Assembly (NCBI GenBank): GCA_951406725.2
Contig: OX597826.1
Span: forward strand, 73,036,001 to 73,100,000
Reading direction: 5' to 3'
Length of the DNA stretch: 64,000 nucleotides
From: Octopus vulgaris
Taxonomy: Eukaryota
Position numbers and translations under genes: made by a program. The notes beneath the pieces are model-generated. The model ran no database searches, was not told where the DNA came from, and saw only the letters and a list, made by a program, of their open reading frames with translations. Shown here piece after piece: positions 1 to 49,402 of this stretch (positions are counted from its first letter, which is position 1; each line of letters starts with the position of its first letter).

Positions 1-1059
1 AGAAATCATACCACCTAACAAATATGAAGAAGAAGAAGAAGAAGAAGAAGAAGAAGAAGAAGAAGAAGAAGAAGAAGAAGAAGAAGAAGAAGAAGAAGAA
101 GAAGAAGAAGAAGAAGAAGAAACAACAAAAGCTATAAAACAAATGAAATCCAAACTAAAAATAGAACAGCAACGAACCATGATAAAACGATGGCAAGAAA
201 AGCCCCTTCATGGCAAATACTGGACTAAACTAAATGCAAAAGAAATAGACAAAGAAAAAGCCCAGTAATGGTTGAGAAGCTCAGGACTCAAAGCAGAGAC
301 AGAAGGATTTTTAATTGCAGCACAAGACCAAAGCCTCCCCACCAGAAATTACCAAAAGCATGTAATGAAAAGAAATATAACATGTAACTGCAGAATGTGT
401 GGAGATGGACAAGAAACAATAAATCATATTATCTCTGGCTGCCCAGTCCTGGCTAAGAAGGAATATATTTACAGACACGACAAAGTTGGGACCTATATAC
501 ACTGGAAACTATGCCAACATTATGGAATAACAACAGAAAAAAGATGGTATAGGCACACACCAGAAAAGGTCACAGAAAACGATAAAGCAACCATACTCTG
601 GGATATGCCAATACACACAGATAGAGAAATTAAAGCCAACAGACCAGATATAGTTGTCAGAGATCATGAAGAAAAAAAATGTTTTCTAATTGATGTATCA
701 ATACCAGCGGATGACAACGTGTCTCTAAAAGAAATGGAGAAACTTTCAAAATACAAAGACCTGGAAATAGAGGTAACCAGAATGTGGAATCTAAAAACAA
801 ACAATTCCTATCATAATAGGTGCATTAGGCATGATAAAAAAATATTCAGACAAATACATAACAAAAACACCAGGACTTACAAACACATATAACATACAGA
901 AAATTGCACTACTAGGCACTGCACACATCCTACGCAGAACACTTTCCATACAGTAACCATCAGAGCATCACAACAAATCACAGCACATACCCAAGGCCCA
1001 CAGAGCTGCGCTCGGTAGTGAAGTGAAAGCACGATATAAAAAATATAAAAAATATACTA

Positions 1060-1062
<3 letters not shown>
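1..1062 (+). mobile_element. R4/Dong-clade non-LTR retrotransposon, 3' part (zinc knuckle + RLE endonuclease), decayed
   Basis: Frame 2 reads ...WQEKPLHGKY..Q*WLRSSGLKAETEGFLIAAQDQ..CRMC..ETINHIISGC..RHD..LWD..RPDIVV..LIDVSIP..K..KYKDL. There is a premature TAA at 266-268 and a frameshift near 800, after which IPIIIGALG..IQKIALLGTAHILR ends at 956. The 3' UTR runs into (TAA)n at ~1063. Confidence 0.9.
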
Positions 1063-1141
<79 letters not shown>

Positions 1142-1375
1142 TAAACCAGGCATTGTCGTGGTGAAAAACAAAAGAAAGAACAAAACTGGGCATTGTTGTG
1201 ATGAATAAAAATAGATAACCGACATTGTATGTCCTGGTGAAAACAGGATGAAAGAGAAAGAAGAAAAAAATGAACAACTGATGGTTTCTTTGCCCTAGGA
1301 GTCGGGAAGACACTCGGCAAAAATCGAAGCAAATTTGAAAGAAGAAAAAAAAAGATAACAACAATAATAATGATG

Positions 1376-1433
<58 letters not shown>

Positions 1434-1455
1434 GAAGAAGAAGAAGAAGAAGAAG

Positions 1456-2588
1456 AAAACAAGAAAGCATCATACTCAGTCACAAAACAGGCAAAGGAAT
1501 ATCTAAGTGAATTCCGAATACAACCAATTTCGGAATTAGAGATAGATATACAAGAAACAAACACAGAAAAAGCTAGGCGCATGAAAACCCGTGCCAAAAC
1601 TGCGGCCTTAGATATTCTGAATAATAAATGGCAAGAAAAACCTCTCTATGGCAAATACCCAAAGAGAGCGAATAATGCAGATATCGACAAAGCCCTGACC
1701 CATCAATGGCTAATGTCCTCTGGCTTAAAATCTGAAACAGAGGGGTTTATCATAGCAGCTCAAGATCAATGCCTACCAACAAGAAACTATCAGACCAACA
1801 TATTAAAGAACGGCAGTAGCCCAACATGTCGTGTATGCCGACAACAGAATGAAACCATTGACCATGTTGTCTCCAAATGCAGTCTTCTAGCGCCTACAGA
1901 GTACCTCATAGGCATGATAGAGCAGCACAATATATTCACTGGGTAATTTGCAAAAACCTCGATTTGCCCCATGAAAAAAACTGGTGGGAACACAATCCAC
2001 CTCCTGTGCTTGAAAATGACCACATCTCACTCTTCTGGAACTTCACCATTCAAACTGACAGGAAGATAGATGAAAATAGGCCAGACATCATATTGAAAGA
2101 CTTCAGACAAAGAACATGCCTCCTCATTGATATGACTGTCCCAATCGATATAAACGTATCTGTCAAGACCTACCAAAAACTGAGCAAATATAAAGATCTT
2201 GAAATAGAAAAAAGCAAAATGTGGAACCTGAAAACTAAAACAATACCTGTTGTCATAGGAGTCCTGGGAATGATAGCGAAAGGGGCTGATTGCTACCTAA
2301 CTCAGATTCTAGGAAACCCCAAAATGGCAGAAATTCAAAAGATAGTGCTCATGGGAACTGCTCATATCCTACGCAAAATGCTTTCTATGTAATCTCAGGG
2401 TTTAAAACAAACATAATTTTCGTTTTTTTTTTGTGTGGACATTCACAAGTACAATACAAAAAAACCCCCCAAATACATGGCACACTAGGCATAACAACAA
2501 CATGAACTTCCAACCTGTTGTCTCTTGAGGTCTCTGGGTAAGACTTGGAGCCAACTTGTACAAATATAAAGCAAAAGTCAAACATAGA
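1456..2588 (+). mobile_element. R4/Dong-clade LINE 3' fragment (second subfamily), 5'-truncated
   Basis: ORFs 1581-1946 and 1877-2392 (frameshift ~1908) give SGLKSETEGFIIAAQDQ, CRVC..HVVSKC, RHD, RPDII..LLIDMTVP and KYKDL, with the stop at 2390-2392. A ~195-bp 3' UTR and (TAA)n follow. Confidence 0.9.
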
Positions 2589-2603
2589 ATAATAATAATA
2601 ATG

Positions 2604-2640
<37 letters not shown>

Positions 2641-3589
2641 TAATAATATAAACCAGGCATTGTCGTGGTGAAAAACAAAAGAAAGAACAAAACTGGGCAT
2701 TGTTGTGATGAATAAAGATAGATAACCGATATTGTATGTCCTGGTGAAAACAGGATGAAAGAGAAAGAAGAAAAAAATGAACAGCTAAGACGATTTGAAG
2801 TAGAAAATACGATGGTTGTGGTCATGAGGAGAGTAGACGTGATACCAATAGAAATTGGTGCACTTGGAAGTATCAGCACTCAACTACTAACGACGGCAAC
2901 AACAGCAACAACAACAACAATAATTCCTCTTAAAATACATAATAATAATAATGATGATGTTGAGGATAATAATAATAATAATTATAATAATAATAATAAT
3001 GGCCATCTCAAGAGAGACACACCGCAAACTCTTACAGTATATGGAGAACACGGAATCAAGACAGGAGGCCCTATTTGGATGATGATGATGATGGTGATGG
3101 TGATGATGATAATGATGATGGTAATGGTGGTGATAATGATGATAGTGATAATAATGGTGATGATAATAACAATAATAAGCCGACAACGGCTGCTATAATG
3201 GTACGATTATAATTGTAACGGCAATGATGGCCGTCTCCCCACGAGCCAATCAAAGCTCAAAAATGATACGAGAACAAATTAGCAAATGTGAGGAGGGATA
3301 TCCTTAGAAATAACAGACTCACAGACAGTGAAATAAGCGCGATCAAGCACGCAACGGAAAATGAAGAGCATTGTCCATGTGAGAACTGTTGCTGCTCATG
3401 TATTTTAATTTAACTTAAAAAAAAATGAACGAACTATTGAGTTTGGTTTAATGGCCTACCAATGTATACTATGAGTTTCTTTGCCCTAGGAGTCGGGAAG
3501 ACACTCGGCAAGAAATGGAAGCAAATTTGAAAGAAGAAAAAAAAAGTAATAATAATAATAATAATAATAATAAGTTATCATGTACATTG

Positions 3590-4097
3590 TTTTGTTGGAA
3601 GTGTTATCATGTACATTGTTTTGTCTTGGTATAAAAGATGGGCTACAGCAAATATTCTGCTCAATACCACAGATTTGCTTGTCAGTTGTTTGACCTTAAC
3701 CAGTTGAGCATGTCCCTTAGTGGCTGACGATATGTGCATCTCTGATCACGAGCAGAAGTAGTGGGGGAGCATCATAGCCATGTGTTGAGAAGGATTCTTT
3801 GGGATTTGAATAATTCACCTCTGGAAACATGGGTGTTTCGTTCAACATCCTTAAACAATCCTTATTCAGGGACCTTTTGAGCGGAATGGGCTACGCGACC
3901 AGAAGAAAATTCTAACTGGGCCCCACCTGCAGGGTCATGTGCTGTTAATCTTGATATGATATCACTATGTCGCGCGCATATGATTGTGATGCATGTGCTC
4001 GCTGTAATCTTATCAGACGTGTAGTTATGAAGTGTATACTGGGTTTCGTATATTTTACCCCAGTGTCACTTTGATGGCATGCACTGCTCTCTCACTC

Positions 4098-4098
<1 letters not shown>
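3590..4098. repeat. Unclassified ~500-bp non-coding interspersed repeat ending in (AAT)n; also at ~6130-6636 and ~8708-9213
   Basis: Near-identical in all three units, with no meaningful ORF. It ends ...ctgctctctcactc directly at (AAT)n, as expected for a retroelement end. Confidence 0.55.
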
Positions 4099-4135
<37 letters not shown>

Positions 4136-4162
4136 TAATAATGATAATAATAATAATAATAA

Positions 4163-4882
4163 TCATGTTGTCTCCAAGTGCAGTCTTCTAGCGCCTACAG
4201 AGTATCTCAACAGGCATGATAGAGCTGCACAATATATTCACTGGGTAATTTGCAAAAACCTCGATTTGCCCCATGAAAAAAACTGGTGGGAACACAAACC
4301 ACCTCCAGTGCTTGAAAATGACCACATCTCACTCCTCTGGAACTTCACCATTCAAACTGACAGAAAGATAGATGCAAATAGGCTAGACATCGTATTGAAA
4401 GACTTCAGATAAAGAACATGCCTCCTCATTGATATGACTGTCCCAATCGATATAAACGTATCTGTCAAGACCTACCAAAAACTGAGCAAATATAAAGATC
4501 CTGAAATAGAAAAAAGCAAAATGTGGAACCTGAAAACTAAAACAATACCTGTTGTCATAGGAGTCCTGGGAATGATAGCGAAAGGGGCTGATTGCTACCT
4601 AACTCAGATTCTAGGAAACCCCAAAATGGCAGAAATTCAAAAGATAGTGCTCATGGGAACTGCTCATATCCTACGCAAAATGCTTTCTATGTAATCTCAG
4701 GGTTTAAAACAAACATAATTTTCGTTTTTTTTTGTGTGGACATTCACAAGTACAATACAAAAAAACCCCAAATACATGGCACACTAGGCATAACAACATG
4801 AACTTCCAACCTGTTGTCTCTTGAGGTCTCTGGGTAAGACTTGGAGCCAACTTGTACAAATATAAAGCAAAAGTCAAACATA

Positions 4883-4884
<2 letters not shown>
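4163..4884 (+). mobile_element. R4/Dong-clade LINE 3' fragment (unit 2)
   Basis: HVVSKCSLLAPTEYLNRHDRAAQYIHW..DFR* then MTVPIDINVSVKTYQKLSKYKD..LSM*. Flanked on both sides by (TAA)n. Confidence 0.88.
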
Positions 4885-4959
<75 letters not shown>

Positions 4960-5911
4960 TAAACCAGGCATTGTCGTGGTGAAAAACAAAAGAAAGAACA
5001 AAACTGGGCATTGTTGTGATGAATAAAGATAGATGACCGATATTGTATGTCCTGGTGAAAACAGGATGAAAGAGAAAGAAGAAAAAAATGAACAGCTAAG
5101 ACGATTTGAAGTAGAAAATACGATGGTTGTGGTCAATGAGGAGAGTAGACGTGATACCAATAGAAATTGGTGCACTTGGAAGTATCAGCACTCAACTACT
5201 AACGACGGCAACAACAGCAACAACAACAACAATAATTCCTCTTAAAATACATAATAATAATAATGATGATGTTGAGGATAATAATAATAATAATTATAAT
5301 AATAATAATAATGGCCATCTCAAGAGAGACACACCGCAAACTCTTACAGTATATGGAGAACACGGAATCAAGACAGGAGGCCCTATTTGGATGATGATGA
5401 TGATGGTGATGGTGATGATGATAATGATGATGGTAATGGTGGTGATAATGATGATAGTGATAATAATGGTGATGATAATAACAATAATAAGCCGACAACG
5501 GCTGCTATAATGGTACGATTATAATTGTAACGGCAATGATGGCCGTCTCCCCACGAGCCAATCAAAGCTCAAAAATGATACGAGAACAAATTAGCAAATG
5601 TGAGGAGGGATATCCTTAGAAATAACAGACTCACAGACAGTGAAATAAGCGCGATCAAGCACGCAACGGAAAATGAAGAGCATTGTCCATGTGAGAACTG
5701 TTGCTGCTCATGTATTTTAATTTAACTTTAAAAAAAAATGAACGAACTATTGAGTTTGGTTTAATGGCCTACCAATGTATACTATGAGTTTCTTTGCCCT
5801 AGGAGTCGGGAAGACACTCGGCAAGAAATGGAAGCAAATTTGAAAGAAGAAAAAAAAAGTAATAATAATAATAATAATAATAATGATAATAATGATAATA
5901 ATAATAATAAC

Positions 5912-6051
<140 letters not shown>

Positions 6052-6635
6052 TAATAATAATAATAATAATTATAATAATAATAATTATAATAATAATAAT
6101 AATAATAATAAGTTATCATGTACATTGTTTTGTTGGAAGTGTTATCATGTACATTGTTTTGTCTTGGTATAAAAGATGGGCTACAGCAAATATTCTGCTC
6201 AATACCACAGATTTGCTTGTCAGTTGTTTGACCTTAACCAGTTGAGCATGTCCCTTAGTGGCTGACGATATGTGCATCTCTGATCACGAGCAGAAGTAGT
6301 GGGGGAGCATCATAGCCATGTGTTGAGAAGGATTCTTTGGGATTTGAATAATTCACCTCTGGAAACATGGGTGTTTCGTTCAACATCCTTAAACAATCCT
6401 TATTCAGGGACCTTTTGAGCGGAATGGGCTACGCGACCAGAAGAAAATTCTAACTGGGCCCCACCTGCAGGGTCATGTGCTGTTAATCTTGATATGAGAT
6501 CACTATGTCGCGCACATATGGTTGTGATGCATGTGCCTGGTGTACTCTTATCAGACGGGTAGTCATGATGGGTATACTGGGCTTCGTATATTTTACCCCA
6601 GTGTCACTTTGATGGCATGCACTGCTCTCTCACTC

Positions 6636-6670
<35 letters not shown>

Positions 6671-6698
6671 TAATAATGATAATAATAATAATAATAAT

Positions 6699-7419
6699 CA
6701 TGTTGTCTCCAAGTGCAGTCTTCTAGCGCCTACAGAGTATCTCAACAGGCATGATAGAGCTGCACAATATATTCACTGGGTAATTTGCAAAAACCTCGAT
6801 TTGCCCCATGAAAAAAACTGGTGGGAACACAAACCACCTCCAGTGCTTGAAAATGACCGCATCTCACTCCTCTGGAACTTCACCATTCAAACTGACAGAA
6901 AGATAGATGCAAATAGGCTAGACATCGTATTGAAAGACTTCAGATAAAGAACATGCCTCCTCATTGATATGACTGTCCTAATCGATATAAACGTATCTGT
7001 CAAGACCTACCAAAAACTGAGCAAATATAAAGATCTTGAAATAGAAAAAAGCAAAATGTGGAACCTGAAAACTAAAACAATACCTGTTGTCATAGGAGTC
7101 CTGGGAATGATAGCGAAAGGGGCTGATTGCTACCTAACTCAGATTCTAGGAAACCCCAAAATGGCAGAAATTCAAAAGATAGTGCTCATGCGAACTGCTC
7201 ATATCCTACGCAAAATGCTTTCTATGTAATCTCAGGGTTTAAAACAAACATAATTTTCGTTTTTTTTTGTGTGGACATTCACAAGTACAATACAAAAAAA
7301 AACCCCAAATACATGGCACACTAGGCATAACAACATGAACTTCCAACCTGTTGTCTCTTGAGGTCTCTGGGTAAGACTTGGAGCCAACTTGTACAAATAT
7401 AAAGCAAAAGTCAAACATA

Positions 7420-7421
<2 letters not shown>
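6699..7421 (+). mobile_element. R4/Dong-clade LINE 3' fragment (unit 3)
   Basis: Same truncation point and same internal stop as unit 2. Flanked by (TAA)n. Confidence 0.88.
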
Positions 7422-7505
<84 letters not shown>

Positions 7506-8486
7506 TAAACCAGGCATTGTCGTGGTGAAAAACAAAAGAAAGAACAAAACTGGGCATTGTTGTGATGAATAAAGATAGATGACCGATATTGTATGTCCTG
7601 GTGAAAACAGGATGAAAGAGAAAGAAGAAAAAAATGAACAGCTAAGACGATTTGAAGTAGAAAATACGATAGTTGTGGTCAATGAGGAGAGTAGACGTGA
7701 TACCAATAGAAATTGGTGCACTTGGAAGTATCAGCACTCAACTACTAACGACGGCAACAACAGCAACAACAACAACAATAATTCCTCTTAAAATACATAA
7801 TAATAATAATGATGATGTTGAGGATAATAATAATAATAATTATAATAATAATAATGATAATGGCCATCTCAAGAGAGACACACCGCAAACTCTTACAGTA
7901 TATGGAGAACACGGAATCAAGACAGGAGGCCCTATTTGGATGATGATGATGATGGTGATGGTGATGATGATAATGATGATGGTAATGGTGGTGATAATGA
8001 TGATAGTGATAATAATGGTGATGATAATAACAATAATAAGCCGACAACGGCTGCTATAATGGTACGATTATAATTGTAACGGCAATGATGGCCGTCTCCC
8101 CACGAGCCAATCAAAGCTCAAAAATGATACGAGAACGAATTAGCAAATGTGAGGAGGGATATCCTTAGAAATAACAGACTCACAGACAGTGAAATAAGCG
8201 CGATCAAGCACGCAACGGAAAATGAAGAGCATTGTCCATGTGAGAACTGTTGCTGCTCATGTATTTTAATTTAACTTTAAAAAAAAATGAACGAACTATT
8301 GAGTTTGGTTTAATGGCCTACCAATGTATACTATGAGTTTCTTTGCCCTAGGAGTCGGGAAGACACTCGGCAAGAAATGGAAGCAAATTTGAAAGAAGAA
8401 AAAAAGTAATAATAATAATAATAATAATAATGATAATAATGATAATAATAATAATAACAATAATAATAATAATAATAATAATAATG

Positions 8487-8586
<100 letters not shown>

Positions 8587-9212
8587 TAATAATAATAATA
8601 ATGATGATAATAATAATAATAATTATAATAATAATAATTATAATAATAATAATAATAATAATAATAAGTTATCATGTACATTGTTTTGTTTATCATGTAC
8701 ATTGTTTTGTTGGAAGTGTTATCATGTACATTGTTTTGTCTTGGTATAAAAGATGGGCTACAGCAAATATTCTGCTCAATACCACAGATTTGCTTGTCAG
8801 TTGTTTGACCTTAACCAGTTGAGCATGTCCCTTAGTGGCTGACGATATGTGCATCTCTGATCACGAGCAGAAGTAGTGGGGGAGCATCATAGCCATGTGT
8901 TGAGAAGGATTCTTTGGGATTTGAATAATTCACCTCTGGAAACATGGGTGTTTCGTTCAACATCCTTAAACAATCCTTATTCAGGGACCTTTTGAGCGGA
9001 ATGGGCTACGCGACCAGAAGAAAATTCTAACTGGGCCCCACCTGCAGGGTCATGTGCTGTTAATCTTGATATGAGATCACTATGTCGCGCACATATGGTT
9101 GTGATGCATGTGTCTGGTGTACTCTTATCAGACGGGTAGTCATGATGGGTATACTGGGCTTCGTATATTTTACCCCAGTGTCACTTTGATGGCATGCACT
9201 GCTCTCTCACTC

Positions 9213-9245
<33 letters not shown>

Positions 9246-9246
<1 letters not shown>

Positions 9247-11610
9247 TGAGGGAATATTATTCCAAACTTACAGGGAAACATTCAATTTAGAAATACTAAA
9301 TCAAATTTCACAAAATATAATATATATATATATAAATTAGAAAAAAACCCCACCTTTTATCATTTCAATAATGAAAAATTAAATTATACCATTTAGAAAA
9401 ATTACATATCATAGAAAGATTAAATATAAGATAAAACATATAACAATGATTAAGTAATGGGCGAAATAATAAATAAAACGTGTATATTTGGTAGAATAAT
9501 GAAACGTGTTTCGTGGCTATATTTAAGAAATGATAATAGTAAAAATAATAGTAGTAGTAGTAGTAAAATCACTTCAATATATATATAGCCACTCTTCAGG
9601 TTAAAGGTAACAACAATAATAAAATAATTAATTAGATAAATTAGTAAATATACGTAAATCTTGTAAAATACGAAATATCTTAAAATATTCTTGTTTAAAA
9701 AATAAGATACAATTAATTAAAATATTTAAAACAAATATATATATATATAAGATACAAAATATACATTAAGTGAAAGCTAAATACTATAATTTAAACTATA
9801 TACATTAAATTATTAATTATTTAATTAATTAATTTTTAAAAAATCTAAATAAAATCTTATGCTCATTAAGTAAGTTATATTAAAAACCTTAATGTTAAAT
9901 AATATACATAATGTTAGTGCAAGCTATAAATATTGGAATCAAAAATAGGAAATGGTTCAAATATATACACACCTATTAGATAAACTAACTATATTATTAA
10001 TATATATGTAGTATCTATAGATTTAATATTTTACTCAATAATATAGTTGACCAAAATATCAATTAATAGAAGACTAATTTACTTAAATGTAATACTACGT
10101 AATAAATATACCACCTAACTATTAAATAATGTATTGTCTTACATAAACTAATTCTCAAATTAAATTATATGTAATACATTAAATCACATTATAAAAATAA
10201 TAATAAAGGATAATAAATAAATAGATATACATATCATAACTAATAATTATCAAGAAATTATATATAAAATTAATATTTTAACAACAATAATAATAATCAA
10301 ACTTAATACAATTCAAAAGTTAAATAATATTGTTAAATAAAAAAAAGGTTACTTAGGTTGTCGATGAAAATAACATAACTGAATTTTAAACGTAAAAATG
10401 TAGGTCTTATCGTTTATAAGAAATTAAACTCGTGAAGACGTTGTGTAAAAAAATAGAATAAAATTATCAATGAAAATGACGAAAAATATTTATTAATGAA
10501 AAAGACGAAAATTATTTAAGCTTCATGAATTAAAGAAAAATAGAATAACAAAAGAACGATAAATGACTGTTTACTATAAATTAATTTCCAAATAATTATT
10601 ACGTAAAATATACATATAATATTAAATTAATTTATATTGCTATAACTAATAGTCTTAATAAAATTATATATAATCATTTATGTATTAAGAAATATCTAAG
10701 TTGAAAATTGTTCAAATATATTAATATAACATATAATAATATAGTAAATTATACTCTAATACTATTAAATTATATCTACAAGAAATAAATAACATAAAAA
10801 GAAATAAGGTTTTATACATACGGAAAAATAAGTTAAACGCATTATATAGGTAAATAAATTTATGCCAGCATTTAAATTTAAGTGACTATTTACTATAAAT
10901 TTAAACTCTAAATAATAAGTAAGTAAAATATATATATTATATTTAAATTAATTTATATTACTATAATTAATATATCTTAATATATTTATATAATCATTTA
11001 TTTATTAGCTAAACCTATTATATAGGTAATTTAGTTTATGTTTATATTTAATTTTACGTTTCTTCAATGAGTTTACCAACACATAATTGTTATTAAATAA
11101 TATTTCTTTGAATTCATTATTACACAATGAACAATAATTACTCCCTATACAATATGATTTAGCCTTACTTATAATCTCCCAAGTTAATTTATATTTAATA
11201 GATCTAGATTTAAGGTCCCAAATATATTTACTGAGACCTGTTGAATTTATTAAATTTTTATTCCTAAAAGAATACATATGTTGAGATACTCTTGATTTAA
11301 TTTTATTCGAAGTGGACCCTATATAAATAGTGTTTAAATTATGATAATTCAAATTCTTATCATCTATTAAAGTTACCATACACTTATAGACTACATTATC
11401 TAAATTACAATTATTATTAAATATACATGTAGTCTTATCCCTACATGTACAATCAATTAAATCTTGGTCTTTATTATTATTATTGGAATCAATATTTAAT
11501 TTATCTTTATAGTATTTATTTAATTTAAATGTATTAAATGGAGAAATAATATTACCAACATTATTAGTAGTTGAATACCCAACTCCAAAATTATTATTAG
11601 AAAAAGGGTT
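9246..11610 (-). mobile_element. Penelope-like element remnant (GIY-YIG endonuclease + very AT-rich 3' region)
   Basis: The open frame 11610->11005 reads ..GVGYSTTNN..DCTCRDKTTCIFNNNCNLDNVVYKC..IYIGSTSNKIKSRVSQHMYSF..STGLSKYIWDLK..WEIISKA..CSLCNNE..LVN, a PLE-type Cys-linker plus GIY-YIG. No RT is present. The 9246-9375 end recurs at ~49085-49210. Confidence 0.85.
9501..9600 (-). ncRNA. Degenerate hammerhead-like motif with long loop II in the Penelope 3' region
   Basis: The minus strand reads CUGAAGA-guggcuauau-(long AT-rich loop)-auauagccac-GAAAC-acguuuc. Stem II is a perfect 10 bp, but stems I and III are poor. Confidence 0.4.
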
Positions 11611-11854
11611 AATATCATTGTTATATGTTTTATCTTATATTTAATATATACGAGAGGTATTGGTATCCAGAAGACCCAAGTTGGCAGGTAACGTTATATA
11701 AGTGCTATGTAAGGACCGTAGTTAAACTCTCCGTTGGATGATACGAGTGAGGAGTCTAATGCGGGTCTAGTATGAGCATGTATATGTTAAATAAAATGAG
11801 ACAACAAACCGAAGGCTGTGTGTAATTTTCAGGACATTTATAAAGCGGAAGTTA

Positions 11855-11902
11855 GTCTTACAGCTGTTTCTGAGATATTTGGGATATCCCTTCATCAGAG
11901 AC
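11855..11902 (-). ncRNA. Minimal type-I hammerhead ribozyme (Penelope pLTR type)
   Basis: gucu-CUGAUGA-a-gggauau-cccaa-auaucuc-a-GAAA-cagcug-UA-agac. Stem I is gucu/agac, stem II is 7 bp, and stem III is the palindrome acagcugu. Confidence 0.75.
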
Positions 11903-12025
11903 GATGTAAGGTGGTTAATAGAGTGAAATATTAGAGTTCAATATAAAGATTTATTTTTCCTTCCTTTTCCAAAATAACTACTTATATTGATCTCCAATAT
12001 TCCCCTCAATTAACCATCTCACGTC

Positions 12026-12073
12026 GTCTTTGACGAAGGGATAGCCCTAATATCTCAGAAACAGCTGTAAGAC
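12026..12073 (+). ncRNA. Hammerhead ribozyme copy with C3U core change (inverted partner of 11855-11902)
   Basis: gucu-UUGACGA-agggauagcccuaauaucuca-GAAA-cagcug-UA-agac. Confidence 0.55.
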
Positions 12074-12219
12074 TAACTTTCTCTTTATAAATGTCCAGAA
12101 AATTCCACACAGCCGTTGCTTTGTTGTATCATTTTATTTAACATATACATATATGTATGTATGCATATATGTTTACACTCATTCATATATATATCTATAT
12201 ATATATATATATATATATC

Positions 12220-12697
12220 GTGACGTATATTTGCCATTTCAATATGGCTAACCCCTAAGGGTGGATGCTACTGTAGTTTTTAGCCCCAGGAAGACACACT
12301 CCTCCAGCTGGCCATAGACACACTTTCTGTGCCCTATCAGTATTTGCAAAGGGAAGTCATCCTTCCCGTCTTCAACTTATGATACACACGGACTCGAGTT
12401 TCGAGGTATTGACCTCTCGTCAGCGTGTGACAATCATAGTTGTCGGCGAGAATTAGATTTCCTTCACAAATACTTATACTTTTTCCAGCGTCCACTGTCG
12501 CTGATATTGAAAAAGTGAAATCAAACAATGATAAATATCAAAGTGAGTTATATACAGTAGCGGTGACACATTGTGACGTATATTTGCCATTACAATATGG
12601 CTAACCCCTAAGGGTGGATGCTACTGTAGTTTTTAGCCCCAGGAAGACACACTCCTCCAGCTGGCCATAGACACACTTTCTGTGCCCTATCAGTATT
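12220..12697 (-). mobile_element. Retrozyme-like / non-autonomous Penelope-type element, 353-bp unit in 1.35 tandem copies
   Basis: 125-bp direct repeats at 12220-12344 and 12573-12697 (1 mismatch) bracket a canonical hammerhead. The 3' end in ribozyme sense abuts (TA)n. Non-coding. Confidence 0.75.
12385..12429 (-). ncRNA. Canonical type-I hammerhead ribozyme
   Basis: cacacg-CUGACGA-gaggu-caau-accuc-GAAA-cucgag-UC-cgugug. All core nucleotides are present, with a 6-bp stem I, a 5-bp stem II, the palindromic stem III acucgagu and a GUC cleavage triplet. Confidence 0.9.
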
Positions 12698-14547: not shown

Positions 14548-14550
<3 letters not shown>

Positions 14551-14788
14551 CAATGATAAATCTTATAAACAGTAGCGGTAACACATCGTGACGCATATTT
14601 GCCATTTGAATTTGGCTAACCCTTAAGGGTGGATGCTACTGTAGTTTGTAGCCCCAGTATCTCAGTATCTGAGAGGGCACAGATAGTGTGTCTATAGCCA
14701 GCTGGAGGAGATATCTTCCTGGGGCTACAAACTACAGTAGCATCCACCCTTAGGGGTTAGCCATATTCAAATGGCAAATATGCGTCAC
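14548..14788. mobile_element. Fold-back (inverted) fragments of the 353-bp retrozyme-like family
   Basis: 14588-14658 is the reverse complement of 14717-14788, and both match 12220-12290. Flanked by (TA)n. Confidence 0.8.
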
Positions 14789-18118: not shown

Positions 18119-18268
18119 CAGCTAAACGAGTTCAGTATGCGGCAAAGTAATTTCTTTTACTAAGCCCTTTTATATAATGTAATAATTTGAATTCGCCTTA
18201 AATGGTCCCTTTGCATACTGAATACTTGGTGAAATTGATTAATTAATTAATTTTACCCTCAATTGTTG

Positions 18269-18299
<31 letters not shown>

Positions 18300-18328
18300 G
18301 AGGATTCGTCGAGGAAGCGGAGGCCTAC

Positions 18329-18374
18329 CACACGCCGACGATAGGCAATACACCTTGAAACCATGGTCCGTGTG
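18329..18374 (+). ncRNA. Type-I hammerhead motif (U4C core variant), copy 1
   Basis: cacacg-CCGACGA-uagg-caauaca-ccuu-GAAA-ccaugg-UC-cgugug. Stem I is 6 bp, stem III is the palindrome accauggu, and the cleavage triplet is GUC. Confidence 0.7.
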
Positions 18375-18688
18375 TGGTTTCCGCTTCATCGGGGAATTAC
18401 CTCCCTTTGCAGGTTAAGGACACCGTGACGGTGTCGGGCCTTTCTGTTGACGTCGATGTTCGCCTGGGGCTAAATGCAACAGTAACACCCCCACCACCCT
18501 GCCCTGTCCCTAGCCATATTCAGATGGCTTTAGTCCCTTATGTTATCGAGCAGTTACTGTCTATATCTCTTTTAGAGAATTATTATTGCTTTCGAACAGA
18601 TTTTCGAAATCAGCAAATGTATTTTGCTTGAAAATCTATATATGAATATCCTGCAGAGTGAGGATTCGTCGAGGAAGCGGAGGCCTAC

Positions 18689-18734
18689 CACACGCCGACG
18701 ATAGGCAATACACCTTGAAACCATGGTCCGTGTG
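18689..18734 (+). ncRNA. Type-I hammerhead motif (U4C core variant), copy 2
   Basis: Identical to 18329-18374, 360 nt downstream. Confidence 0.7.
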
Positions 18735-18902
18735 TGGTTTCCGCTTCATCGGGGAATTACCTCCCTTTGCAGGTTAAGGACACCGTGACGGTGTCGGGCC
18801 TTTCTGTTGACGTCGATGTTCGCCTGGGGCTAAATGCAACAGTAACACCCCCACCACCCTGCCCTGTCCCTAGCCATATTCAGATGGCTTTAGTCCCTTA
18901 TG

Positions 18903-18951
<49 letters not shown>

Positions 18952-19085
18952 CAATTGAGGATAAAATCTTTAAAAATCTTTAAAAGAAATTATCAGTAGT
19001 CAGCGTGAAAAGCCTCGTAAGAGAAAAAAATCCGTAAATTCTTCCTCTTTGAAAATATTCATTTATATTAATATAATATAATATA

Positions 19086-19373: not shown

Positions 19374-21758
19374 CACAAGGCAGCATTTTTTTTTGTCTGG
19401 GGCCTGGACGGTTTCAACGAATTCCTAAGTGATTTTTGCCTACTAAATTCAAATATAACTTCAGTTTTTCTCTACCAGGTCTATTTTTCGGACTAGACCT
19501 GACAGAGTAAGTATTTTATTAATACAAGAGGCATATAATATGAATCAATAAAGAGAGCGTAACACAAAACAAAGTGCAAATAAAAATTCAAAATTGAAAA
19601 TGTACTTCGGCAAAGATTTTTGGAAGAAAATTCAAGGAATAAATTTACGCTTCTTTGTGCACCGTGAATGCTGAGCAACAGGAGTATCTGGTTTTAGACA
19701 CCAGCAATAGTCTGTAATCACCACAGCGTCCCAACGCTTGATGTCCTTCATGTCCTGATGGAATCGTTCGCCTTGTTCATCACTAACATCGAGATTTTCA
19801 GGAAAACGATCAAGATGACTAAAAAGATAATGCATTTGGATGCTCATATTCGCACCAATATCACGAAAAGTTAATATCAAGCTGGTAACAAGGTCTTTAT
19901 AGTTTTCATTTTTGTGCTTCCCAAGGAAATTTTGCACTACTTCTACAAAGGCTAGCCGAGCTGATGCTTCGTTTTCGCTCATCGTTTTTACGAAATTTGT
20001 GTCCTTCAAGAGCTTTCGGATCTGTGGTCCATCAAAAATCACTGCTTTAAGCTTTTCAGTCATCAAGTCCGGAAATACACTGCAGATATACTTGAAGCAC
20101 TCGCTATTTTTGTCGAGAGCTCTGTCGAATTGCTTGATCAATCCCAGTCTGATGTGCAAAAGGGTGAAAATGATCTTATTTCGCTCAACTAAAGGTTCTT
20201 CCAATATAATGGCAGCTCTACATGGAGCCATATTTGTCCGAGGCGGCCAGTCTTTCTTAACATAGTGGTTTACTCAGTCTCTACTGTCCCACATGCAAAG
20301 AAAGCATGGGTGTTGGGTATAACCAGATTGCTGTCCCATGAGAAAATTCACCATCTTTAAGTCAACGCAGATGACCCATTTATGATCATGATACACTATC
20401 TTCTCTAAAACCAACTTAATTTCTTCATATTTTTCCTTCAGAATTGTCGAGTGGCCGAGTGGGACAGAGCCATACACATTGTGCAACAATACACAATTTA
20501 AACTGTACTAAGAGCTGTCTATGAAGTGACGCCATTCCTCTGGTTTGTATTCTTCAATGCCAAGTTTATTAAGAAGTGCACTGACTTCCCTGCAGTAAAC
20601 CAGCTCTTCCTCTTTTGTGAAGAAAGAAAAGATCTCTTCATGTTGACTCCGATAAATGGTGATACGGACACCATTTTCCAGAAGATTTTTCTCTTTCAGT
20701 CGGGAAACCAACAGTTCTGCAGAATTTTTGGGGAGGTTCAAGTCACAAACTAGATCATTTAGCTCTATCTGGGAGAATAGCGGAGGTAAAGTCTCTACTG
20801 AAAAGTCTTGATCTCTAGTGTCATCTTCAGGTGATGAAACTTCTTTGGTTGAGGGTAAAGTTATCTGAAGACAGGAACAGGAAGCTCTTCACTGTGTGGA
20901 ACTGGTCTAATGACTGAGGCAAGATTAGGACAGAGAATCGTTTGTCGATTTTTCTGGTTAATACCCGTCAAATTTGAGTTACAAAAATAGCAGTCCTCTA
21001 CGTGATTATAACGCTCCCGTCATACCATTGGTATAGCAAACCTCATACTTTTCCTTGCTCCTTTAGTCGATTGTCATAGATGTTCTGTACATTGTTTGCA
21101 GGCTCTATGCGGTGCTCAATATTTATCTTGGTCCCCAGCTTGACCCCAAAATATGCCATATTCGCTCTTTCAATAAAATCAGTGATGTCTTTACGATCTT
21201 CAGATAATGTGTATTCTCCACAAACAGAACAAAACACATTTGGAGAATTAACGCAACACTTTCTTGAAGAAGACCTCTTGTTCGTTTTCTACTGCGTAGT
21301 TCACCACAACATCTAAAAAATATGAAAAAAGGAAAAAAAAACTTGGAATTAGAATAAGGTAACGAACACTGCATACTGGACGTACAAACATACGTAGTGA
21401 CTACAGCAGTGGTTTTCAACCAGGGTTCCGCGGAACCTTAGGGTTCCGCCAGTACAGTCCAGGGGTTCCGCAAGAAGTTACAAAACTGCTAAAATCGGCA
21501 GTAATTTTTAATTTTCCTGTGCAGATATGTGTGCATAAAACTATTAAATTATTGCACAGGGGTTCCCCGAGCCAGTGGAATGTTTCCTTGGGGTTCCGCT
21601 CCAACAAAAAGTTTGAAAAGCACTGGACTACAGGGATGTTTAATAACTTAAAAACTAGATCTAATTGGTCAAAAAGCTGGCGATATTTGGATTCAGGAGA
21701 CGAGTTGGTACAGGAAAGATGTCTACTTCCTAAACGCCAAAAACCTTTGAGACCAGTG
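19374..21758 (-). mobile_element. Chapaev3-like (CMC superfamily) DNA transposon with pseudogenised transposase
   Basis: Fragmented ORFs 21237->19632 contain FCSVCGEY, IPMV..DCYFC, WVICVDLKMVNFLMGQQSGYT..PCFLCMWDSRD, LHIRLGLIKQF, FDGPQIRKLL, MHYLFSHLD and SDEQGERFHQD. Termini are CAC...GTG with similar subterminal sequences. The family name is from recalled motif similarity. Confidence 0.75.
21407..21625. mobile_element. hAT-type MITE nested in the Chapaev-like element
   Basis: TIRs cagtggttttcaac / gtttgaaaagcactg. Perfect 8-bp TSD gactacag at 21399-21406 and 21626-21633. Internal gggttccgc repeats. Confidence 0.9.
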
Positions 21759-30076: not shown

Positions 30077-31353
30077 CGAGGGGCGTTCAATAAGTAATGC
30101 CTCTGACCCACTTGCCGTTGATTGATCTAGTTGAGATTTTTCATGTGTAATTATTTATATCTCTATAGATTAAGTGGCAAATTACAGCTCCGAACTAATA
30201 GTGGTTTCTGATTTACATGTGTTTGAAATGAGTCAAGTGGGAAATGGAGCCTGTTGAGTGTCGAGAAATGATCCGGTTTTTGTATTTGAAAGGACGCACA
30301 CCACAGGAGACTTTTGATGAAATGAAAATAACTTATGGTGATGATGCCCCATCATATGACCTTGTAAAACGCTGGCATCGTGAATTCAAACATGGTGGGA
30401 ACTCTGTGGAAACAGCTCCCAGATCTGGTCGCACCCCTTCTGCCATTGATGAGGCATCTGTCCGTCAAGTTGAGGCTGCCATTTTGGAAGATGGACGCAT
30501 AACTATTCGCCAAATAGCCCATGAGGTCAAGATTAGTACCGGGTCTGTGGAAACTATCATTCATGACCATTTGCATATGCAAAAGGTGTCTGCCAGAGGG
30601 ATTCCCAGGTTGCTCACACTTTTTCTGAAGCAAGAACGCGTCGAGTGCTCGAGGATGAATTTAGGGATGTGCCAAGAAGATGAGTCAAAATTTTTCAAAA
30701 GACTGATTACACATGATGAGACCTGGGTCCTTCACCAATATCCAGAGACCAAAGCCCAGTCAATGCAGTAGAAGCACCATGACTCACCTCCTCCAAAGAA
30801 GGCAAGGGTGCAGCCCTCCGCTGGCAAGGTCATGCTCACAGCCTTCTGGGACCAGGACGGAGTAGTGATGACAGATTTCCTGGCAAAGGGTACCACAATT
30901 ACAGGAGCCTATCATGCTTCACTTTTGAGGAAATTAAGAGAAGCTATCAAAACCAAGAGGCGGGGCAAGATCAGCAAAGGCATCCTCCTCCTGCAGGACA
31001 ACGCTCAGGTCCACAACTCGCGTGTCGCCAGATCAGAAGCACAGGCGTGCGGCTATGAACACTTCCCCCACCCCCCTACTCTCCTGACCTTGCACCCTCT
31101 GATTTTCACCTCTTCCCAGCCATGAAGTTGTTTTTGAAAGATGATGCAGCCTTGATTTCTGAAGTCACGTCGTGGTTGGAGGACCAAGCTGGGGTCTTCT
31201 ATGAAAACGGTCTCCAGAGCTGTATCAAACGATGGGAGAAATGCGTAACTCTGGGTTGTTCCTATGCTGAAAAAGACTAATACCTGTGCCAAGTTTCGTT
31301 GCTCTACTGCTATGGGAAGTGGGTCAGGGGCATTACTTATTGAACGCCCCTCG
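30077..31353 (+). mobile_element. mariner (DD34D) DNA transposon, near full length, pseudogenised transposase 30244-~31280
   Basis: TIRs cgaggggcgttcaataagtaatgcc / ggcattacttattgaacgcccctcg with a TA TSD. Motifs: HTH, (W)IPRLL, HDETWV, LQDNA and YSPDLAPSD. There is a stop at 30769-30771, a frameshift near 31070 and a small deletion. Confidence 0.95.
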
Positions 31354-37756: not shown

Positions 37757-38244
37757 GCCGAAAGGATGAAAGGCAAAGTCGACCTCGGCGGAATTTGAAC
37801 TCAGAAAGTAGTGACAGACGAAATACCTATTTCTTTACTACCCTCAAGGGGCTAAACACAGAGAGGACAAACAAGGACAGACAAACGGATTAAGTCGATT
37901 ATATCGACCCCAGTGCGTAACTGGTACTTAATTTATCGACCCCGAAAGGATGAAAGGCAAAGTCGACCTCGGCGGAATTTAAACTCGGAACGTAGCGGCA
38001 GACGAAATACTTATTTCTATACTACCCTCAAGGGGCTAAACACAGAGAGGACAAACAAGGAGAGACAAACGGATTAAGTCGATTACATCGACCCCAGTGC
38101 GTAGCTGGTACTTATTTAATCGACCCCGAAAGGATGAAAGGCAAAGTGGACCTCGGCGGAATTTGAACTCAGAACGTATCGGCAGACGAAATACTGCTAA
38201 GCATTTCGCCCCGTGCGCTAACGTTTCTGCCAGCTCGCTGCCTT
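37757..38244 (-). mobile_element. SINE family C, head + ~2.4 tandem 184-bp bodies
   Basis: Junctions at 37826/7 and 38010/1 are identical in position to the one at 23346/7. Confidence 0.88.
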
Positions 38245-39385: not shown

Positions 39386-40881
39386 AATAATATTCTAGTT
39401 CCTATATGCATCGAGTCCTTTTCAGAACAATGGACGGTTTTATTGATAAAATATAAACAAAACAGTTTTGTGCCATTGGACACAGCAAACCCACTGAATC
39501 GATACGCCACTCTAGAGTCCTCTGTGTGTGTGCGTGCGTGTGTGTTCGTACGTGCGGTCGTGTGTGTACATATCCTTTTAGTCATTCTTCGTTTGAGTTA
39601 ATGTAAATTTATTGTTATCGTACATATTTCATAAGCAAACTGTCATGGCCGACACCTGCTTCCGATTTCGTGTCAGCGTACAGATATGCACAATGACTAT
39701 AACGTCACTCGTAGGTAAGTCCAGCGATGGTTTAACAGTTTCACTTTCGTTCATCGATTCGCCGGTGACTCTACATTTTCTAAATTTACTCATCTGTTCA
39801 AACCTGCTTGTTGTTGTTGGCTTGCTCGGATGCAATGGCAGCTACACCAGATGGGTCCCTTAGCTACGAGACTAGACCAGATGGGTCTTCAGCTTCAATG
39901 CTCTTCTGCAGTTGTAGATAAATACTCGGTATTCGGACAGGATGCCAAATGCACTTTTGCGAAGGACAAGGAACCGAAGATAAGAAACCAAACGGACATA
40001 AAAACGAACGGACACAATGCCGAACGGACAAAATGCCGAACGGACAAAATGCCGAAAAGACACACGAAAGTTAAATTATAAGATAATCATTTTAGTTCTG
40101 CAATATAACCATTTGACAAACTAAAATGGTCATTAAACAATGTAGGTAGGATTTTTTTTATTGTGTCTGTAAGGAATATGTGATATCTCCGCTTGCACTT
40201 TTGGGGTGCAAGTTGGTGCAATCACTTTCCGTTGCTTTTATATCCAGACTCTACCAGTCAAAGAAACACAAAACGCAGACGTAAAAAATAGACATACTTT
40301 ATTGTTTTATACCGGTGAGAAATCAGTGGTATATCTGATGTCCAAAATGGCGTCCTGAGGAAGAAGATGATTTGACTGCAACAATTCAGGTTAAAAGTCT
40401 TCGGCCAAAGGACTGCTGCTATCAAAACCGGAGAGAGAGCGAATTAAACGTCTGCTTTGGTGAAATGCCTGCCGCTGTCTGTCGGACGCTAATGGTCAAC
40501 CTTTACGCTCCCTTGCCTCTTTGTTAAGGTTCACGCTCCCTTGCCTAAGGCCACGTCAGCAAGGCTGTCAGCTAAGGCCACGTCAGCAAAATTCCCTCTT
40601 TCGGACTTCGTGTATTCGCGAGAGGGCGTTGCGCGCGCGCGCGTTGTTGTATAGGATCACTTCACTACAAAGCTCCCCTCCAGTGCCTAAGCACGAACAA
40701 CAATTCCTTGTAGTGACCATAAAACTCAAGGTGGACACCAGACAACCAAAAATAGCACACAATATAATACATTAAACAGCAAAAAAAAAAAATTCACCTT
40801 AAAGGTAAAAAGAGAAAAAATACTCAAAATGAGCAAAGTTCAATGAGTACTGAACTGTCACTGGGAAGTCAATTGAAAATG

Positions 40882-42969
40882 TCAAATATAAATAGTTTTG
40901 GAAAGTTTTTCCGGCCAGTGAACAGTTCTGCCTGACCTCGTAACATAAGGTCTGTTCGAGGCAGGCTGCGACGACGAAGGTGGTGTTGTCGATGTTGGTG
41001 TTGATAATGGTGCATGTGTAAATAGTGGTGTTGTCAAAGGTGCATGTGAAGGTTCAACGATGGTTGTGGCAGTGGGGTCATTAAAAGATGTGGACACCTC
41101 AAAATATGCCCTTTTAAGACGATCTACGGAGACGGTCTCCGAACGACCGTTAATTTCAAGTTTGAATACCTTCGGCGTGCGAGAAATCACACGAAAAGGT
41201 CCTTTATAAGGAGAAACAAGAGGTCCTTTGACAGAATCATCACGAATAAAAACATGCGTCCAAGAATTAAGGTCTGATGGCACACTAGAAGGAGGATTTT
41301 GGTGTCGAGGGTCCATAGGAGGAAGGGCAGAAAAATATCTGCGTAATCGAGCAACATAAGACTCTAAATTAAGAGACTGTGACTTGTCTGGCACCAACAT
41401 CGTACCAGGCAATGCCAGTGTGGTACCATACAAGAGCTCGGCAGACGAAAAACCAAGGTCTGCTTTAATCGCAGTCCGACATCCAAGCAGGACGATCGGT
41501 AGAAATTCAGTCCATGTCTGTGGATTCGGCGAGGCACGCAAAGCGGCCTTAAGTTGCCTATGGAAACGCTCCACCATCCCATTAGAAGCGGGGTGGTAAC
41601 TTGTGGTGCGTATATGATGCATCCCCAGGATTCGTGATAACTCACGAAACAATGCAGACTCGAATTGTCGACCACGATCTGTGGTTAAACTGTACGGTAC
41701 ACCATACCTCGAAATCCAATTAGATACGAAAGCCCTCGCAACAGTTTCAGCTGAAATGTCTGCTATAGGAATAGCTTCCGGCCAGCGTGAAAAACGATCA
41801 ATACAAGTTAAAATGTATGAGAACCCGCGACTCACAGGCCATGGTCCAACCAAATCAAGGTGGATATGGCGAAAACGGGCTTCAGGAGAGGAAAATTGTC
41901 CAAGTGGAGCACGAACGTGCCTATGGACTTTAGCACTCTGGCACCTCAAACAAGAGCGTGCCCAAGAGGTAATTGATCGTCGCATATTGGGCCAGAAGAA
42001 CCGAGCAGTAACAAGCTTTACTGTGGCATTCCTCAAACCAAAACTCATAAATAAAAATTCAAAACAGCCAAAAGGAGTAGTAATTGCTGTTTTAGGAATA
42101 TCGTCTGAGTTGACCGGTATTTGATGGTAGGCACGTATCAGGTCAACCTTAGAAAAAATAGTACAGCCATGTAAATTTGCCGAAAAATCGTTTAAAATCC
42201 TTATGGGATATTTGTCTGGAATCGTCACCGCATTTAGACGCCGATAATCTCCCACCGGGCGAAAATCTGTATCCCCTTTTCTTACTAAATGAAGGGGAGA
42301 TGCCCATGGACTGGTGGAGGGGCGTATCAGACCGAGCTGGAGCATGTGCTCAAACTCAGCCCTAGCAGTTTTAAGTCGATCAGGTGCAAGACGCCTTGGA
42401 CGTGAAAAAACAGGAGGTCCAGTTGTTGTTATAAAGTGTCGTGTCGAATGCAATGGCTTAGCCACCCTAAAGGTAACATCATATAGCTCTGGAAAAGAAG
42501 CTAAAAGAGAGTGAAAAACATCTCCAGATGTACCGACAAAAAATGTCGGGCTAAGAGCTAAATTGGTAGATTCTCCGGTCGGCGTGGATAGTGTAGTCGA
42601 ACTATCGACCAACCTCCGACGTCTGACATCTACCAACAAATCAAATTTATCCAGAAAATCCGCACCTAAAATAGGATGCGGAATGTCGGCAATGACAAAA
42701 ACCCATCGAAAGTCTCGTCGAAGACCAATATCAAGGCGCAACGACATCTGACCGAATGTGGCTATTGGTGACGAGTCAATAGCGTGCAAGATGACGTTAG
42801 ATCGCTTTGGCCTGTCGGTTGTGCAACGCAGAGGCCAAATACTGCAACAAGAACCAGTGTCTACCATGAAGTTTTTCTTCGACACTAGATCTTTAACAAA
42901 GAATGCACGATAACCAGAAAATGTTGTGGAGGAAGTTGACGTGCTCAAATTCTCCGAATCTAGTTTAAA
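40882..42969 (-). CDS. Gypsy pol (protease - truncated RT fused in frame to integrase)
   Basis: FMVDTGS protease, [37 protein letters not shown] and FGLRNA, then directly [35 protein letters not shown] and GPF. YxDD and RNase H are absent. Confidence 0.92.
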
Positions 42970-43687
42970 GACTTATAAGTGCATGGCTGTGTGCACCTAT
43001 GTGCATTCTCTCCATACTTGGAGTGGTACCAACACAGTCCAGACTTAGACTGTGTTGATCTCGAGGATGAACGACTGCGACTTCGCGATTTTGAAGATCG
43101 CTTACCATCGCGACACATCGCGTCCATCCTTTTAGTGAGGGTTTCTATTAGTTTAGAAAGCCCCTCAATTGAGGCCGAAGAGGTCTGTGAACAGGCACAA
43201 GCAGACCGTGACGATGGTTGAACGGCAAATTCAACCATCTTATCAGCCATCGTTGCTATTTGGTCCACTGTATTTGTCTCTAAGCCGGTTGCCAAAACGG
43301 TCTGTATATAGGCGGGCAACCTCGAGAAAAAGATCTTCCGAAGGAGGGGGCATCTGATGCATTACCACTTAACTCCCTCAGTCTTCGTAAAAACTCTGAC
43401 GGAGTTCTGTCCCCTAGTTGCTCATCTGCCATTAACTCATTGAAACGACTTTCCTCGCTTCGTGTATTTCTTTTTTCAACCTCTAATCTAACAGACGCAT
43501 AAGTAGCGCCTGGACTAGGGTCTGTAATAAGGTCCCTTGCTGAAGATGCCAGTTGCGGCAGCATGCAACCATAAAGGATTTCCAACTGCTGCTCGGGAGT
43601 AATACTTTGTGCACGAAATTGTGCCTCTAACTGTGAAAACCACAGTGTGGCATCACCTGTAAAAGTAGGTAACGAACCCATAAACAT
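42960..43687 (-). CDS. Gypsy gag (1-bp frameshift at ~43345-43350)
   Basis: [35 protein letters not shown] / [32 protein letters not shown], the typical Gag with a CWYH knuckle. Confidence 0.85.
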
Positions 43688-49029: not shown

Positions 49030-49083
<54 letters not shown>

Positions 49084-49402
49084 CATTAGGGAATATGATT
49101 CCGAATTTACAGGGAGAATTTCAATTTAGTAATACTAAATCAAATTTCACAATATATAATATGTGTATATAAATTAGAGAAGAACTACCATGTAGCAATT
49201 CAACAATGATATACTTAAATCATACCATATAGAAAAAAATTAAAGATACGATTAAACATTTACGTAGAACTAAATAAAATACGAAATAATAAATAAATAG
49301 TATATAATTAGTAATTATATACTCATTATATACAATTTTAGATAGATATGCATATACATATATATACATAAACATGTATATGTATATATACATATATATA
49401 TG

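Follow-up and report, generated by a model that had tools for sequence, protein, structure and literature searches.

How two copies of a 248-nt repeat come to carry the same departures from the canonical hammerhead ribozyme core is the question raised by this locus of Octopus vulgaris, analysed here within a stretch of 64,000 nt (hereafter the window). An earlier note on this DNA had taken the shared non-canonical bases to fit rolling-circle copying, in which a single template is copied more than once round, or else a natural variant of the core, with a later local duplication as the alternative explanation.

Architecture of the insertion and of its 360-nt unit

The whole insertion comprises 608 bases, equal to 1.69 units (about 1.7) placed head-to-tail between two (TA)n runs (Table 1). 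Its two 248-nt repeats are identical at a spacing of 360 nt, just as the earlier note had described, and the match can be extended at neither side. Cuts predicted after 18368 and 18728 would release an exact 360-nt monomer, an expectation borne out by GAAACCATGGTC, which ends at both positions.

Table 1. Features of the family A insertion and of its sister family B, in coordinates of the window.
Feature	Position	Strand	Remarks
(TA)n microsatellite, left side of likely target	18273..18299	.	1 T in common with the 5' end of the element
Upstream 5'-truncated unit	18299..18546	+	248 nt, 0.69 period; equivalent to a pseudo-LTR
Hammerhead copy 1, type I	18314..18387	+	predicted outer helix 18314-18325/18376-18387; stem I 18329-18334/18369-18374
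Hammerhead copy 1, core CCGACGA	18335-18341	+	U4C at 18336; predicted cut after C17 = 18368
Hammerhead copy 1, stem II	18342-18356	+	contains U10.1·U11.1; followed by GAAAC-CAUG-GUC
Predicted cut-to-cut monomer	18369..18728	+	360 nt
Segment occurring once at the locus	18547..18658	+	112 nt; joins the repeat head-to-tail, junction 18906->18547
Downstream 248-nt repeat copy	18659..18906	+	holds the 3' end of the insertion
Hammerhead copy 2	18674..18747	+	core 18695-18701, U4C at 18696, N7 at 18699; predicted cut after 18728
Stem III palindrome of hammerhead copy 2	18720-18727	+	ACCAUGGU
Motifs kept in the sister family, just 5' of the insertion 3' end	18823..18888	+	CCTGGGGCTAAA at 18823; GCCAT/ATGGC hairpin 18873-18888
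(TA)n microsatellite, right side of likely target	18904..18948	.	TAT at 18904-18906 compatible with element or target
Family B partial tandem, 1.36 units	12217..12697	-	128-nt repeats, spacing 353, 98% alike
Family B canonical type I hammerhead	12423-12391	-	descriptor scan; CUGACGA, G10.1-C11.1, C17 = 12391
Inverted pair of 5'-truncated family B copies	14550..14788	.	between two (TA)n runs

The monomer has a GC content of 47%, a longest stop-free frame of 90 codons and a longest Met-started frame of 50 codons. Its circular minimum free energy (MFE) was computed as -118.8 kcal/mol (z -4.8 against 60 shuffles), with 65% paired in the predicted fold. Comparison with the sister family B described below, a matter of 2 sequences only, revealed that 13 of the 68 predicted pairs change on both sides, and a predicted hairpin inside the 112-nt segment covaries likewise. 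The element is thus most likely a non-LTR retrozyme, given a multi-copy head-to-tail unit within the 150-450-bp range, one type I hammerhead per unit, a non-coding sequence of GC <50% and a circle predicted to be compact and self-paired. A plant LTR retrozyme, which has a type III hammerhead in its LTRs, was ruled out since the motif here is of type I with stem I open.

The surroundings of the locus show a symmetry of their own. Just beyond both TA runs lies an 18-bp inverted pair with 1 mismatch (18250-18267 / 18950-18967), so that the site before insertion would form a hairpin whose loop is (TA)n, and this pair probably predates the insertion. The segment 18228-18257 is by itself an 87% palindrome.

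Hammerhead motif and its variant core

Both hammerhead motifs consist of a stem I of 6 bp (CACACG/CGUGUG), a stem II of U·U followed by 3 bp and a stem III of 2 bp closed by a CAUG loop. The canonical hammerhead is given as C3 U4 G5 A6 N7 G8 A9 G12 A13 A14 A15 U16 H17 with a paired 10.1-11.1 (PMC3088659), and the present motifs depart from this consensus at two places, namely the C at position 4 and the U·U at 10.1-11.1, while all remaining positions match; the U4C change and the U-U at the base of stem II were accordingly recovered in both copies, as the earlier note had reported. Within the window, CCGACGA occurs at 18335 and 18695 only. The pattern CCGAYGA-N12-18-GAAAC-N4-GTC had 2 matches in the window, against none in any of 100 dinucleotide-shuffled versions, and a relaxed U4C descriptor returned 2 window matches against a mean of 0.03 over 30 shuffles, both patterns having been drawn up after the motif had been seen. 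In Rfam, none of the 11 matches for the region 18250-18960 at E values of up to 10 is a hammerhead, nor is any of the 150 listed out of 215 matches for the whole window.

Folding with C4 or U4 in silico yielded identical energies, hence U4C leaves the predicted fold unaltered. For the 608-mer, joining the two motifs in a double hammerhead is predicted to be 5.5 kcal/mol more favourable than folding each singly, and these active folds lie 12.4 and 17.8 kcal/mol, respectively, above the predicted minimum, tertiary terms left out.

The variant core as family consensus

At least half of the words of the monomer were found in 20 of the 24 listed public runs (11 studies, 5 organism labels), and no run among these 20 is recorded as RNA. 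Four of the matching runs were compared as contigs over a single period (18547-18906), with likeness set at 80% and the threshold for listing at 3%, which serves as a proxy for a genome-wide test of identity within and between loci. In the DNA run X1, 1392 contigs fall on the 360-nt unit and the coverage of the bin that holds 18696, 18702 and 18716 is deep; summed depth was dropped as a measure of copy number. No alternative letter at these three positions (position 4 and the U·U pair) was seen in any of the four runs, which bear three organism labels. Three complete monomers were retrieved (X2 record 9, X4 record 17 and X20 record 16; organism labels A, B and E), and every listed difference in them is explained by positions other than these. 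The sole core position that varies is N7 (18699), which the canonical consensus leaves free, read as C or T, with T in 76,988 of 130,874 depth of X1. The check proposed in the earlier note, whether CCGACGA is the family consensus, therefore returns CCGAYGA with U·U as the consensus of family A in these four runs, with N7 polymorphic. As U4C and U·U belong to the consensus and were unvarying across the four runs, their occurrence in both copies is uninformative on rolling-circle copying: the argument from identical non-canonical bases fails, and it is the natural core variant that proved to be the right reading. The head-to-tail junction 18906->18547 was found in all four runs.

Among the side observations on these runs, an A allele at 18682, which converts a G·U into an A-U in the predicted outer stem I, accounts for ~9% of X1 depth and is the allele of X20 as well as of both monomers from runs guessed to be RNA (X2 and X4); the minor subfamily with this allele may be the expressed one. 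A metagenome scan with the family pattern gave 0 matches. With a looser U4C pattern 120 metagenome loci were obtained, none of them like family A or B by BLAST, and 1 (L010) had a stem I of at least 4 bp. The latter is a solo type I hammerhead motif (L010:793-843) with a CCGACGA core, a paired stem II and the palindrome ACAUAUGU, located on an AT-rich metagenome contig and bearing no relation to family A by BLAST.

A canonical sister family and the insertion footprints

A second family in the same window, family B, has a 353-nt unit that aligns full-length with the 360-mer (219 of 340 columns identical, 64%; z 14.4 against 300 shuffles). Stem I is the same in both families, and family B is canonical at U4 and at G10.1-C11.1. 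The 8-nt stem III palindrome is retained with changed letters, being ACUCGAGU in family B and ACCAUGGU in family A, and it is likewise kept with differing letters in a third motif. The 3' end of family B lies 174 nt past C17 and runs into (AT)n, that of the family A insertion lies 178 nt past the predicted C17, and both fall at the same aligned position, directly after the conserved GCCAT/ATGGC hairpin. The region of CCTGGGGCTAAA and this hairpin could therefore be regarded as a candidate signal for the start of reverse transcription. Of the inverted family B pair, one copy ends at the common site and the other 38 nt farther, which resembles the tail of Penelope-like elements (PLEs). The 3' ends sampled number four in total, one of them from family A.

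The footprints described for PLEs include tandems of incomplete units, truncated copies in inverted orientation, a tail of 30-40 bp and insertion into microsatellites (Craig et al. 2021, PMC8557442). At the family A locus, the PLE-type features are the partial tandem with 5' truncation, the microsatellite target and the internal 3' end, while the 38-nt tail and the inverted truncated pair occur in the sister family B only. In the PLE of Anolis (PAc), reverse transcription was measured to begin internally, at a constant position 3' of the hammerhead (Frangieh et al. 2024, PMC11167929), and the common internal 3' end of families A and B fits such an internal start. It is thus likely that the retrozyme family was moved by a PLE. 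Among the PLE relics inside the window, none with sequence similarity to the 360-nt unit was found, so the link to PLEs is one of insertion footprints and not of homology.

Origin of the tandem arrangement

Within the 248-nt repeat, the copies at the locus show 0 differences from one another, as against 5, 6 and 5 relative to the three complete monomers; at a rate of 5/248, 0 differences would be expected with P ~0.006. The letters 18780A, 18797G and 18807T are present in both copies and missing from all three complete monomers, and their shares of X1 depth are ~8%, ~4% and 0% (G in 579,074 of 579,074), respectively. Since the window and the compared runs may differ in species or individual, these letters are not necessarily private to the locus, and 18663G was dropped as a locus-private allele because X20 has the same letter. 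The proposal of a single template copied more than once hence retains the support of 18780A, 18797G and 18807T and loses that of the shared U4C and U·U, which are family consensus. Runs X2 and X4, RNA by guess only, contain one 390-nt wrap-around contig each (360+30; depth 13 and 8). The DNA run X20 also yields a wrap-around contig, of 407 nt, for which reason the 390-nt contigs were dropped as proof of circles.

Complete identity over 248 nt would equally be expected if a shorter insertion had been locally duplicated in recent times or if the second copy were an assembly artefact, as an assembler going twice through one path would also force 0/248 differences. We consider this improbable. The junction 18906->18547 occurs in four of four runs with three organism labels, so the tandem joint is a feature of the family and was not created by a local duplication, which disfavours the alternative named in the earlier note. 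In addition, family B (12217-12697) repeats the layout of a truncated unit upstream and the family 3' end downstream, flanked by TA at either end, and unequal crossing-over would itself have to start from more than one period. We take the insertion to be real and probably young. Still less credit is given to the notion that the repeats are pseudo-LTRs of a truncated autonomous PLE and not parts of a closed non-coding unit. Hammerheads do occur in PLE pseudo-LTRs (PMC4209133), 24 of 57 Xenopus retrozyme families match known transposable elements, nearly all of them PLEs (bioRxiv 10.64898/2026.07.22.740005), and PLE relics are close by in the window; against this, the unit closes on itself in all four runs, none of the X1 contigs continues into unlike sequence, in a test limited by their shortness, and the hammerhead has canonical helices of 6 bp and 4 bp instead of the minimal PLE form. 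An intact autonomous PLE, with a telomerase-like reverse transcriptase and GIY-YIG frame between pseudo-LTRs, was ruled out by the 112 nt between the repeats and the lack of a long frame there.

As two cleavage sites lie uncut within the insertion and its 3' end is 178 nt beyond the second of them, reading a cut linear monomer once could not have produced it; a circular template, a multimer left uncut or a jump between templates would be required. By a modest margin over even chance, we favour the view that the locus is a 1.69-unit copy of a 360-nt non-coding family whose RNA is self-cleaved, circularised and copied in trans by a PLE. Under such a scheme, multimeric transcripts are predicted to self-cleave at the U4C hammerhead, where cleavage may be slow or may depend chiefly on a double hammerhead formed via the palindrome ACCAUGGU. 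By analogy with axolotl and mussel retrozymes in vitro, a host ligase of RtcB type could then close the 360-nt monomer into a circle, a (TA)n tract would be nicked by the GIY-YIG nuclease of a PLE, and the reverse transcriptase would initiate internally, at a constant position immediately 3' of the GCCAU/AUGGC hairpin, pass the ligated junction and halt after 1.69 rounds, 70 nt upstream of the first cut. Copying of 1.69 rounds through the ligated junction would render the two 248-nt copies identical. The circle is favoured on two grounds: copying from it makes successive units identical again, and both circles and ligation by RtcB have been reported for animal retrozymes of 330-390 nt (PMC7229834); the same circle model was put forward for PLEs (PMC4209133).

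An appreciable, though lesser, probability is accorded to the same element and PLE helper acting on uncut multimers, or with the reverse transcriptase jumping between linear monomers, for which a circle is unnecessary. Internal initiation 178 nt past a hammerhead would then give rise to the partial tandem, and either route would leave the same footprint as a circle. The PLE of Anolis speaks for it, as it initiates internally, has unprocessed RNA as its main substrate and was unaffected by ribozyme mutations (PMC11167929), and so do the two activity-lowering deviations of the core, the mis-pairing of the core in the predicted MFE structure and the finding that, of 9 retrozyme dimers from Xenopus assayed in vitro, only 1 cleaved (bioRxiv 10.64898/2026.07.22.740005). 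What argues against it is the identity of the two copies together with their common minority alleles, since copying of a linear multimer keeps the differences between units, and either a recently homogenised donor or a jump would be needed. Moreover, families A and B have kept every remaining core position along with the palindrome of stem III, and this conservation suggests selection for cleavage. Copying from a circle remains, by that modest margin, our preferred reading of the locus.

Other elements in the window

Several further elements were noticed in the window. A 180-nt inverted repeat of 87% identity (11778-12150) has a minimal PLE-type hammerhead in each arm, namely a canonical one with C3 = 11898 (-) and a C3U variant at 12030 (+), with the palindrome ACAGCUGU. 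The decayed 3' end of a PLE with C-terminal endonuclease lies at 11005-11634 (-), with an AT-rich tail to ~9240. This relic has 3073 homologs at E <=0.001 (phmmer), the long ones showing RT-like motifs by eye, and among 8 scanned homologs there was one weak GIY-YIG Pfam match. The relic itself gave no Pfam match and no word-index homologs, and was identified by the full phmmer search alone. As an active partner it was ruled out, having no nucleotide similarity to the retrozyme unit. Inspection by eye points to the remains of a hammerhead-like motif, long in stem II, near 9600-9500, and 9242-9493 resembles 49081-49313.

An LTR retrotransposon occupies 39991-44600 (-); Pfam matches to RT and integrase fall within its frame 40882-42972, and its ends, near 40.2-40.6 kb and 44.1-44.6 kb, are repeats. 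The frames of a DNA transposon relic at 19632-20888 (-), which have no Pfam support, resemble Chapaev3-type transposases, and another DNA transposon relic at 30232-30771 (+) contains a mariner-type HTH_48 domain. The region 269-8950 begins with the 3' part of a non-LTR retroelement with a weak zf-RVT match and continues into a block of ~2.5 kb that is present three times with (AAT)n tracts. Lastly, a 184-nt repeat is found at 37758-38195, which together with the abundance of microsatellites is reminiscent of Octopus genomes.

Implications

The literature already contains this class of element, the circle model and either core deviation by itself; what is new is the family-wide fixation of U4C together with U·U, and the conserved internal 3' end that is common to a sister with a canonical core. 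Whether the hammerhead in PLEs and animal retrozymes serves circle processing or is a passenger is under discussion (PMC8557442, PMC11167929), and a high-copy variant-core family beside a canonical sister with the same insertion footprint provides a ready comparison for that role, while the common internal 3' end connects retrozymes to the PLE initiation mechanism by footprint. It may be speculated, although we regard it as rather doubtful, that the doubly weakened core became fixed in this mobile family because slow or dimer-only cleavage was favoured, with the sister staying canonical and both starting reverse transcription 174-178 nt past the cut. If true, the pair of families would constitute a natural experiment on the role of the cleavage rate in PLE-driven spread, and with CCGA-core families invisible to Rfam and to CUGANGA descriptors, counts of animal retrozymes may miss a whole layer.

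Comparison with known systems

In our literature search on octopus and cephalopod hammerheads, Penelope ribozymes, U4C and octopus repeats, mostly judged from titles, no such family was found; the PLE hammerhead variants of Lunse et al., Ambros & Flores 1998 and the supplement of PMC7229834 may already show an animal family with U4C. The main text of the 2026 repeat annotation of O. vulgaris contains 0 mentions of hammerhead, ribozyme or retrozyme, and the same annotation names recently active Penelope-like families (PMC13282606). As for the core, no mismatch at positions 10.1 and 11.1 is tolerated as well as U10.1·U11.1 (Perreault et al. 2011, PMC3088659), and U4C in a viroid considerably lowered activity in vitro while infectivity was retained (PMC3088659, citing Ambros & Flores 1998). 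The single changes are thus the same as in the natural variants of Perreault et al. (PMC3088659), but here they are combined and, far from being rare, form the consensus of a high-copy animal family.

Li, Clavereau & Pollet 2026, whose sample comprises vertebrates, three insects and a coral, use a dimer with two complete hammerheads as the criterion for a putatively active element, and the present locus resembles their PLE pseudo-LTR derivatives in having such a dimer with PLE relics nearby (bioRxiv 10.64898/2026.07.22.740005). With PAc of Anolis and the PLEs with C-terminal endonuclease it shares the upstream 5'-truncated copy, the AT-rich or (TA)n targets and the internal 3' end past the cut (PMC11167929, PMC8557442), to which the sister family B adds the inverted pair and the tail extension of such PLEs. 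Unlike PAc, the unit has no ORF and its hammerhead is of canonical size and not minimal; reverse transcription would start 174-178 nt past the cut here, against ~85-92 nt in PAc (site +111 to +118, cut +26; PMC11167929).

The closest known systems are the metazoan non-LTR retrozymes (Cervera & de la Pena 2020, PMC7229834), such as the 350-390-bp units of mussel and Rtz_353/HHR_Amex2 of axolotl. A tandem non-coding unit of 150-450 bp with GC <50%, one type I hammerhead per unit and a 2-bp helix III with a tetraloop are common to both, and in HHR_Amex2 helix II likewise has a U·U at its base, with cleavage more efficient in the dimer (PMC7229834). The octopus family differs from them in the fixed internal 3' end in (TA)n targets, set against the retrozymes as described there, and in carrying U4C family-wide on top of the U·U, no U4C family having been encountered in the consulted text of PMC7229834.
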